This document shows, in pieces, positions 53,740-64,000 of a stretch of DNA of 64,000 nt. Source of the stretch: Nitrosopumilus sp. (GTDB taxonomy: Archaea > Thermoproteota > Nitrososphaeria > Nitrososphaerales > Nitrosopumilaceae); assembly GCA_965205425.1 (NCBI GenBank), contig CBDBGZ010000005.1:128001-192000 (forward strand), written 5' to 3'. Within the stretch, counting starts at the first letter, position 1. Each line of letters opens with the position of its first letter. The notes under the pieces are model-generated. The model was not told where the DNA came from, made no database searches, and saw only the letters and a list, made by a program, of their open reading frames with translations. Position numbers and translations under genes: made by a program.

Positions 53740-54558
53740 CTATTTATTGGATCTTGCAATATAAAAATCGGCATAAAAATTACCATCATCTTCATATTTT
53801 TCAGTATTAATTCCCATGTCCTGTAATAAAGAAACAGTCTGTGCTTTTTCTTTAGAATCTGAAAAATTTCTTTGACGTATTGGTTTTATGTCGCTTTTTA
53901 CAATAGAGTAATCATACATCTCAAAAACTTCTTCAATGTCTTTCATACCAAACATTCTAAGAACAGAGAATGCAAAAATTGGAGCAGTATATTCTGTTTC
54001 AGATTCATTTGAATTAGATTGTCTATTTTTAATTACTTTTAGTAGATTCAAAAATGCCTTGTATCCGATATAACCTACACAACCAGTTGCAATTACTATG
54101 TCCATCTTCGGTAATGATTCTAATAAATTTAATTTTTCAGCTTCAAGATCAATATCTATACCTCTTTCACACAAATCCATTTCTTCAGAGAATTTTAGCG
54201 CCTCTTTTGAAATATCTATTTGATAAAAATTGATGTTATCGTTACTTGTGCATTTTTCAAAGAATTGTTTAGTTTCTTTCTTTGTAGGTTCAGATCCATT
54301 TAAGAAGAAATCACTTAATTCTAACATTGTTAAATTGTATTTCAACAGTGATGAGTTGATACCATACGAACTTCCTAAATCTAAAACATTAATGGGTCTA
54401 GATAATTTATTTTCAATTTGTTCTATGATGGATGTGTACAGCGGTTTTGTTGAATCTGATATAGAATATTTCAACCGCTTCATTTCTTTTAGATATTCAT
54501 ATGGAGAATCCTGTGTGTAGATATCTGTAAAATCTTTTTTCACTTTTAATTCATTCAT
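53740..54558 (-). CDS. Class I SAM-dependent methyltransferase-like protein
   Basis: VLDLGSSYG motif I, DIS..AL, TGCVGY. Confidence 0.75.
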   Translation of the reverse strand: MNELKVKKDFTDIYTQDSPYEYLKEMKRLKYSISDSTKPLYTSIIEQIENKLSRPINVLDLGSSYGINSSLLKYNLTMLELSDFFLNGSEPTKKETKQFFEKCTSNDNINFYQIDISKEALKFSEEMDLCERGIDIDLEAEKLNLLESLPKMDIVIATGCVGYIGYKAFLNLLKVIKNRQSNSNESETEYTAPIFAFSVLRMFGMKDIEEVFEMYDYSIVKSDIKPIRQRNFSDSKEKAQTVSLLQDMGINTEKYEDDGNFYADFYIARSNK

Positions 54559-62751: not shown

Positions 62752-62910
62752 ATGGGATTCAAAAAAGGCATTCACAAATGTGTCGAATGTGAGAAAAAAA
62801 TGAAAGAGAATCCTGATGAAGCAGGTATGTGCAGTAAATGTGGTGCAGCAGAAACCCGTATTGAAAAAACTGTATACAAAGAATTAATCGACGAAGGACG
62901 ATTCCCATAA
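62752..62910 (+). CDS. 52-aa zinc-finger microprotein
   Basis: MGFKKGIHKCVECEK...MCSKCG... Confidence 0.7.
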   Translation: MGFKKGIHKCVECEKKMKENPDEAGMCSKCGAAETRIEKTVYKELIDEGRFP

Positions 62911-62949
62911 CCTAATTTCTAACATATTATTTTCTAAAATTTATCAAAA

Positions 62950-63112
62950 GTGAGATTGAAAGAACTGAAGAGGCTCTTCCAATCCCATGAAGAATGGAGA
63001 GAATCCGTTCTTCATAATTGCGTTTCGATTACCCGATTTGGTAATCGCGATTTTTGGAATCACGCAACAGATTATCTGTATGGTGCTGTAAAAACTTAGA
63101 TGAATAGCACTC
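62950..63112 (+). ncRNA. Candidate multi-hairpin structured RNA upstream of hef
   Basis: Series of stems including a 12-bp hairpin and a three-way junction; G-U pairs favour + strand. Confidence 0.55.
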
Positions 63113-63174
63113 ATTAGCTAACATTAGACTATACGAAAGCATAAAATCAACAAATTACGATCTTTGTATATCTG

Positions 63175-64000
63175 ATGACTGAATTTGTTGAAAAAAAATA
63201 TGTGAAAAAAAATTCTATTGAAAAGCGAGATTATCAAATCAATCTTGCAAATCAGGCAATAAAGGAGAATTGTATTGTGGTTTTACCTACTGGCCTTGGA
63301 AAAACCGCTGTTGCTTTACATGCGATTTCTGAATTTCTGGCAAAAGGAACTGGCGGCATTTTATTTTTAGCACCTACACGAGTTTTAGTAAATCAACATT
63401 ATGAATTCTTGAAAAATAATTTGACATTAGATGACATATCGTTAATTACTGGGGAGGATACAATACCAAAAAGAACAAAACTTTGGAATAATAGTATTGT
63501 TTGTGCAACTCCGGAAATTGCTCGAAATGATTTGAATCGAAAAATAGTTTCTTCAGATCAATTCAATTTAGTTGTGTTTGATGAAGTTCATCGAACTGTA
63601 GGTGATTATGCATATTCTGGGATTGCTGAATGGTTTGCAGATTCTCCTGCTAGATTAATTGGAATGACTGCAACTTTACCTAGTGAGAAAGAAAAAGCAA
63701 CTGAGATTTTAACAAAATTGCGAATCTCCAGTGTTGCAGAACGTACAGAAGATAGTCCTGATGTAAAACCTTACACTCAAGAAACAAACACAGAATGGAT
63801 TAACGTAGAGCTTCCACCTGAATTAAAAGAAATACAAAAATTATTGAAATTAGCGTTAGATGAACGATATGATATTCTAAGAAAGAATGGAATTCGTTTG
63901 GCTGAACAACAATCACTTTCAGCATTACTTCGAATTAGACAATTTGTTCTTAATCAAAATAGGCGTTCTGCAAAACCTTTGTTCACTGCAATCCGAATAC
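63175..64000 (+). CDS. hef: Hef/FANCM-like SF2 helicase, 5' part (runs off window)
   Basis: RDYQ, LPTGLGKT, LAPT, ATPE, DEVH, GMTAT by manual translation. Confidence 0.9.
   Translation, partial: MTEFVEKKYVKKNSIEKRDYQINLANQAIKENCIVVLPTGLGKTAVALHAISEFLAKGTGGILFLAPTRVLVNQHYEFLKNNLTLDDISLITGEDTIPKRTKLWNNSIVCATPEIARNDLNRKIVSSDQFNLVVFDEVHRTVGDYAYSGIAEWFADSPARLIGMTATLPSEKEKATEILTKLRISSVAERTEDSPDVKPYTQETNTEWINVELPPELKEIQKLLKLALDERYDILRKNGIRLAEQQSLSALLRIRQFVLNQNRRSAKPLFTAIRI

Follow-up and report, generated by a model that had tools for sequence, protein, structure and literature searches.

Two intergenic, structured RNAs of marine microbes, the 229-nt Tan1 of marine group II Euryarchaeota and the ~300-nt Yfr103 of picocyanobacteria, are both transcribed, according to PMC5069720. 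The RNA analyzed here shares with Tan1 and Yfr103 the intergenic location, the structured nature and the restriction to one lineage of marine microbes, but it differs from both in being 120 nt long, single-copy, patchily distributed and present at many loci; no sequence link to either RNA was found. The integrated mobile elements of thaumarchaea (PMC6563490) occupy the same hosts, and a single integrase-bearing element next to a tRNA gene contains a distant match to our RNA. In contrast to those elements, however, the unit considered here is a 165-bp cassette with no integrase or att repeats, and no such RNA or miniature inverted-repeat element (MITE) is described in the passages of that paper examined.

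The RNA is also reminiscent of the omega/re RNAs of TnpB and IscB and of the bridge/seek RNAs of IS110 in that it is mobile, hairpin-rich and of similar size, but no nuclease or recombinase was seen beside the cassettes, and there is no variable guide. TnpB (PF07282) was not found in the source genome, with a positive control in 8 of 14; the search for IscB (PF14239) found nothing but was uninformative, its control being positive nowhere, and the TATA box is too close to the core to accommodate a 5' guide. As for the IS110 bridge and seek RNAs, the loops of our RNA are conserved over ~31 neighbourhoods, and the source genome contains no second match. Ro60 (TROVE, PF05731), the marker for Y RNAs, was not found in the source genome (control positive in 2 of 14), and alignments inspected by eye for box C/D and H/ACA motifs contain no conserved RUGAUGA/CUGA pair and have a U-rich tail. 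Protein-sequestering RNAs include 6S, CsrB/RsmZ and the type III antitoxins. The RNA is similar to these in its own predicted promoter, its fixed fold and sequence and the lack of a guide segment, and unlike them in having no Rfam match, no adjacent partner gene and no tandem repeats. Nitrosopumilus ranks with the most abundant archaea of the sea, and no regulatory RNA family is described for it in the literature searched at the level of titles and abstracts; at the same level, this RNA is not described, and supplements of motif surveys or Nitrosopumilus transcriptomes could list it.

The element lies in a 64,000-nt stretch of DNA (hereafter, the window) from a 2.2 Mb archaeal genome, denoted G000. 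We predict that it is very likely a real RNA gene: a structured, apparently undescribed RNA family encoded on the minus strand, stand-alone and mobile. The key features are as follows.

Beside the element, minus strand: family-B polymerase-like ORF and dCMP deaminase
62752..62910, plus strand: 52-codon Cys-rich (zinc-ribbon-like) accessory ORF, between the dCMP deaminase and the element, convergent with the RNA
62946..63065, minus strand: predicted ~120-nt non-coding RNA; fold of -44.2 kcal/mol, match to model R1 of 152.5 bits, covariation
62949-62946, minus strand: U-tail; together with P5 (62946..62986), a terminator-like match
62986-62973 with 62965-62952, minus strand: terminal hairpin P5; two-sided changes at 4 of 14 pairs, many G-U/A-U/G-C swaps
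62984..63000, minus strand: near-invariant 17-nt strand (RNA nt 66-82), complementary to nt 1844-1860 of the 23S rRNA of the same genome
62987..63015, minus strand: hairpin P4; internal mismatch conserved, loop C/U-rich; two-sided changes at 3 of 11 pairs, 7 of 11 invariant
63020..63065, minus strand: 5' three-way junction P1-P3 with an invariant CGCG linker
63065-63062 with 63023-63020, minus strand: P1; two-sided changes at 3 of 5 pairs, alignment register differing between groups
63061-63058 with 63052-63049, minus strand: P2; 4 of 4 pairs never vary, no covariation support
63047-63040 with 63033-63026, minus strand: P3; two-sided changes at 5 of 7 pairs
63087..63094, minus strand: TATA-like box of the RNA gene; TTTWTAS start at -29/-30
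63129..63148, plus strand: promoter-like motif conserved before hef and distinct from the RNA
63175..64000, plus strand: 5' part of a hef-like DEAD/ResIII helicase, divergent from the RNA; Pfam DEAD E 2e-23, ResIII E 9e-22

The helicase is presumably Hef. The 52-codon ORF is kept in relatives at other loci, and its matches to Pfam zinc ribbons are weak and below the cut-off. Being the nearest downstream ORF in only 3 of 103 cassettes, it is a neighbour of the RNA rather than a fixed partner. The titles of the records that contain homologous loci name Nitrosopumilus and related marine thaumarchaeotes.

The region is more stably folded than expected by chance on both strands (z of -4.0 on the plus strand and -6.4 on the minus strand, with 0 of 200 shuffles as stable on either). 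A sequence-only reading of the window had already pointed to a densely base-paired RNA candidate here, and the stems that it quoted are indeed present at 62987/63004, 63018/63062, 63026/63040, 63067/63075 and 63083/63104. That reading opted for the plus strand because two conserved positions, the C-A mismatch of P4 (outside the 36 pairs of P2-P5) and the closing position of a small junction hairpin, read as U-G only there. These positions are real, but the strand assignment is reversed by the homologues: on the minus strand, 136 cells, spread over 12 of the 36 P2-P5 pairs, are G-U and 0 are A-C, and the fold energy is lower on this strand in 88 of the 98 distinct cores (these cores, as well as the totals of 127 to 132 cassettes used below, are distinct strings over all loci, including unlisted ones, and do not represent independent genomes). 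Two of the earlier stems, acaga/tctgt and gtgctgt/atagcac, are found in exact form in 1 of 127 cassettes and belong to the promoter region, outside the RNA; the terminal hairpin at 62952-62986, the U-tail and the 52-codon ORF at 62752-62910 had been overlooked.

Covariation, which had been suggested as a check, is present: four of the five helices, P1, P3, P4 and P5, show compensatory changes, and P2 shows none. At least 5 different compensated versions of P3 exist, along with several each of P4 and P5. Two-sided changes affect 10 of 41 pairs in an unfitted MAFFT alignment, where shuffles average 2.6 and slid controls reach no more than 5, and 15 of 41 pairs (93 cells) in a model-fitted alignment of 61 distinct metagenome sequences. 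These counts overstate the number of independent events, given that the sequences are related; the tool itself warns that kin sequences can beat its shuffles. In agreement with the initial failure to recognise a tRNA, SRP, RNase P or riboswitch pattern, Rfam 15 yields no match at the gathering score, only chance matches with E of 3.7-8.9, and the SRP and RNase P RNAs of G000 lie elsewhere.

The copies share the same layout on the minus strand, namely, a TATA-like box, ~20 more variable bases, the conserved 120-nt core and a U-rich tail, and conservation across the homologues has sharp edges. Among the 128 distinct cassettes, the first base of the TTTWTAS motif is at -29 in 113 cases and at -30 in a further 11 (124 of 128 together), counted from a purine that is always preceded by T; positions -21 to -3 are more variable, and in the second sequence group, the TATA box has the canonical TTTTATAC form. 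At least 3 T within 8 nt follow P5 in 126 of 127 cassettes. The geometry of archaeal promoters is well established. From this geometry, the TATA spacing and the pyrimidine-purine start, we infer +1 at 63065 and an end near 62946, both of which are predicted ends; sequence signals of the gene's own promoter and terminator are present. A sigma-70 promoter scan was set aside because this model does not apply to archaea. Sequence runs matching the element number 11, of which 2 are recorded as RNA, each with a small share of matching words. The four runs that were examined consist of contigs that cover ~62930-63096 and extend past the predicted ends into unrelated flanks; they point to relatives being present rather than to expression.

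The element is single-copy in G000 and has no similarity to any other place in that genome. A DNA search of 401 family genomes produced matches in 39, of which 33 were kept: G000, 29 of 98 congeneric genomes and 3 genomes that belong to two other genera. The remaining six short matches (five in g11 and one in g24) were dropped as flank matches, and the three of these that were checked failed the model. The covariance model, built from 28 of the 33 DNA-search homologues, matched 48 of 151 genomes of the genus, 47 of them strongly (at least 88 bits) and one weakly. Only 2 of the 47 carriers have two copies, each pair in a like context. In a sample of the order (2 of 151 matched) and in a sample of the class (1 of 41 matched), no genome matched by the covariance model lies outside the genus, and a second model detected no remote homologue at E<=1 in 5 near-complete genomes of the same genus, a set that included no positive genome. 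A pattern scan of metagenomes returned at least 120 matches, and 77 of the 80 listed loci fit the model. The other 3 of these 80 failed it, as did 3 of 4 loci labelled as bacterial. The fourth, on a contig labelled Phycisphaerae (L130), carries the RNA next to Nitrosopumilus-like neighbours and is probably mis-binned.

The copies retain 80-95% sequence identity and occur in highly diverse surroundings. Among 113 distinct cassettes, the nearest neighbours belong to 44 families upstream and, among 103 cassettes, to 40 families downstream, in all four orientations, so that no single gene class is consistently downstream and co-oriented, as it would be for a cis-leader or a riboswitch; the 95 cassettes with a long gene nearby fall into 31 neighbourhood groups. 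In one genome (G162), a small-ORF remnant and hef occur together without the element, which sits elsewhere in the same genome; the element-free site contains ~50 other bases and is not a clean empty site. The remnant that precedes hef in G162 is that of the 52-codon ORF. On a FastTree phylogeny of 110 genomes (39 of the 47 carriers and 71 of the 104 non-carriers) made from one short marker region, presence and absence require 18 state changes against 32 in shuffles, that is, they are clustered: in one clade, 13 of 17 genomes have the RNA, the four that miss it being 53-73% complete, and elsewhere on the tree, the RNA is scattered. The distances between cassettes and between hosts correlate poorly (rho 0.135 across 38 genomes), and two genomes (G359 and G239) at a marker distance of 8.9% carry an identical cassette.

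The spread of the RNA is that of a gene that behaves as horizontally moving accessory cargo, without transposon hallmarks, while keeping the identity among its copies. Because the upstream promoter moves along with the RNA, transfer at the DNA level, rather than at the RNA level, fits the data. The RNA shares this mobility with a 79-aa accessory ORF, which likewise occurs at many loci. Viral contigs gave 0 matches to an exact 17-mer. Two matches to a gapped pattern in viral contigs do not fit the model, two phage blastn matches of 31 nt are due to chance, and scans of viral contigs for the HNH gene and for the 52-aa ORF gave 0 matches and 1 weak match, respectively. A 13-mer common to the RNA and to a 7-copy transposase gene is in the same sense in both and was judged to be a chance match.

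Our preferred, if still tentative, reading in full is a stand-alone, mobile, protein-binding small RNA gene of Nitrosopumilus with its own promoter. Under this scenario, transcription of the minus strand would start from the gene's own TATA box and end at the U-tail, and the transcript would fold into a three-way junction followed by two stacked hairpins. A ~165-bp DNA cassette consisting of the promoter and the RNA would move among variable intergenic sites and between species, travelling like the small accessory ORFs around it. That the RNA is stand-alone and acts in trans is likely; it would do so by presenting a fixed shape and sequence to a protein, following decoy, antitoxin-like or scaffold logic, and would neither guide nor control a neighbour gene. 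Recognition by a protein is itself a guess, a candidate mechanism that we consider plausible but short of even odds, and one that we favour because the helices and linkers are invariant (P2 in 4 of 4 pairs, P4 in 7 of 11), there is no variable guide segment and little of the RNA is single-stranded. Alternatively, the high invariance of the stems may be due to a recent spread or to base-pairing with a second RNA. No protein partner was found, and no partner gene lies beside the RNA. The family is well bounded and covarying, with a predicted promoter, start and end, and has close relatives that are without the RNA, which makes the proposal directly testable.

Several explanations compete with this one, and those that deny the RNA an independent role fare worst. 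A cis-regulatory leader of hef, as proposed in the sequence-only reading, or a short peptide gene would account for the hef start 105 nt away and for the open frames of 49 and 56 codons that overlap the element in G000. However, the RNA is on the opposite strand and points away from hef, 3 of 113 cassettes adjoin this gene, and hef has its own promoter-like motif, which all 20 hef loci examined contain, including 17 with no RNA; the anchor-to-anchor lengths of the 98 cores are spread over all three frames (52/23/23), an internal ATG is retained in 68 of 98, and the frame of the antisense 56-codon ORF, the conservation of which was to speak against an RNA, is not conserved. The leader and peptide readings are accordingly already largely refuted and exceedingly improbable. 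The other half of the original proposal, a novel small RNA, is borne out by the covariation, by the lack of a kept frame and by the absence from Rfam, so that very probably this is a previously undescribed small RNA and not a control leader of hef. A non-autonomous transposon (MITE or IS end), or a DNA hairpin or recombination site without any RNA function, would account for the sharp boundaries and the many insertion sites, and in G000, a 7-bp direct repeat flanks the element (at 62919 and 63118). Yet, flanking direct or inverted repeats show no excess over cross-pairings in 132 cassettes (the apparent inverted repeats are background), the G162 site is not cleanly empty, copy number is one in G000 and rarely two elsewhere, and the TATA spacing, the U-tail and the G-U bias suit an RNA, all of which makes this alternative very unlikely. 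Somewhat less remote, but still improbable, is descent of an orphan antisense or antitoxin RNA from integrative elements, kept as an exclusion function against an integrase-HNH family. Patchy single-copy spread is typical of defence cargo, and in G437, a tyrosine integrase and an HNH gene beside a tRNA enclose a distant match to the 3' half only (G437:C30:15588-15697, L111:3089-3198; 32.8-34.5 bits, E ~2e-5 per genome). This is, however, the only such case found: the best match at the 17 other HNH loci (3 of which come from G092 and G206, both flagged unpublished) is 15.1 bits, the region in G437 has no close relative in the 150 other genomes of the genus that were searched, viral contigs and phages have no match to the RNA, and of the 5 same-genus genomes with the HNH gene, 2 have the RNA.

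Two further alternatives keep a trans-acting RNA but replace the protein with a nucleic acid target. An antisense small RNA, in which the C/U-rich loops of P4 and P5 pair with the purine-rich ribosome-binding regions of mRNAs, is the next rival after protein recognition, although an unlikely one. These loops are conserved in their C/U-rich composition, and the gene's own promoter and U-tail resemble those of regulatory small RNAs, but the loops are only 4-8 nt long, the P5 loop exists in three variants, the genome contains no long antisense match (two exact 14-mers), and the top genome-wide duplexes vary between RNA variants, with the exception of the 23S site. The latter site underlies the other possibility, namely, that RNA nt 66-82 invade a 23S rRNA hairpin (nt 1844-1860; probably helix 63, judging by the flanking sequence) and modulate ribosome assembly, storage or activity. 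The match consists of 17 contiguous pairs, 4 of them G-U, and spans both hairpin arms and the loop; it ranks 3 of 1726 among genome-wide runs for the G000 RNA and, for two other variants that together represent both sequence groups, 1 of 1553 and 2 of 1231, it is equalled by 11 of 500 nulls by length and by 6 of 600 and 8 of 600 by energy (p ~0.01-0.02), and at least 17 pairs are retained in 82 of the 98 distinct cores. The target is unchanged in 42 of 42 same-genus genomes read by pattern and differs in several other genera. Nevertheless, the match was found post hoc among four targets (16S, SRP and RNase P RNA show no pairing above shuffles), and 16 of the 98 cores lose the 17-pair run. The 23S target never varies within the genus, and there is no covariation between it and the 17-nt strand: in G060, G229, G380, G351, G162, G375 and G311, the RNA strand is changed and the 23S site is not, most of the changes being matched inside P4, and for two such run-breaking variants, the 23S site is absent from the ranking. 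In co-folding, both hairpins stay closed and no duplex forms, the 17-nt strand being locked in its own helix, and in G309, a carrier of another genus, the 23S site differs. Pairing with the 23S hairpin is therefore improbable, and the same holds for a broader version, a mobile, RNA-only ribosome modulator that pairs through 17-18 nt with the 23S hairpin, has its host range set there and possibly descends from an integrative element. If real, this pairing would define a kind of ribosome-directed RNA of which we know no prokaryotic example. A eukaryotic tRNA-like small RNA, part of the SRP, has been mapped by cross-linking to a variable rRNA helix, according to PMC2800229, which offers a precedent for a small RNA touching the same variable helix; here, the correspondence is a computed complementarity.

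Several additional observations concern the genes that surround or accompany the cassettes. The most common co-travelling ORF encodes a 79-aa Cys/His protein (L011:1187-1426, L329-L358); its copies are 78-94% identical, sit at many different loci and occur in 47 of the genus's 151 genomes. This ORF is present in 35 of the 47 RNA-carrying genomes and was not found in G000, and when independent pairs are compared, its association with the RNA does not reach significance (median p 0.375); it is the first ORF downstream in 16 of 103 cassettes. The protein has a weak Pfam match only and falls into unnamed archaeal clusters, and its structural model is uninformative (pLDDT 59; best fold match Z 4.2, none at 5 or above). 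In 16 of 97 cassettes (L102, L104, L107-L110), the RNA is preceded at ~50 nt by a divergent 111-aa hydrophobic ORF, at two different chromosomal sites, one of which is between two cobalamin-synthesis-like genes.

Genes for the ~190-aa HNH proteins (L165-L181) occur in 15 of 301 family genomes, for the most part close to tyrosine-integrase-like genes; in G000, the HNH gene (G000:C8:40308-40853, L169) is next to a transposase-like ORF. A TCTCTCTC-like motif was seen by eye 15-45 nt before the HNH start codon in 11 of 17 upstream regions, two of the 11 coming from genomes flagged unpublished; it may be a site at which small integrated elements are replicated or regulated. Secondary matches to the G437 region turned out to be ordinary coding or promoter sequence.

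Elsewhere in the window, a 272-aa ORF (53740-54558, minus strand) is flanked by a methylmalonyl-CoA mutase-like gene and an epimerase-like gene and, with relatives at other loci (L340, L355), looks like a mobile accessory gene. G000 also contains at least 7 near-identical copies of a ~426-aa transposase-like gene, presumably IS66-like, six of them on C4 (208510, 225837, 258323, 291711, 298513 and 304736) and one at C5:93, some nested with IS-like ORFs. Several AT-rich ARAGORN tRNA calls in this genome appear to be spurious or repeated, for example, five Phe and three Leu calls with near-identical upstream text.
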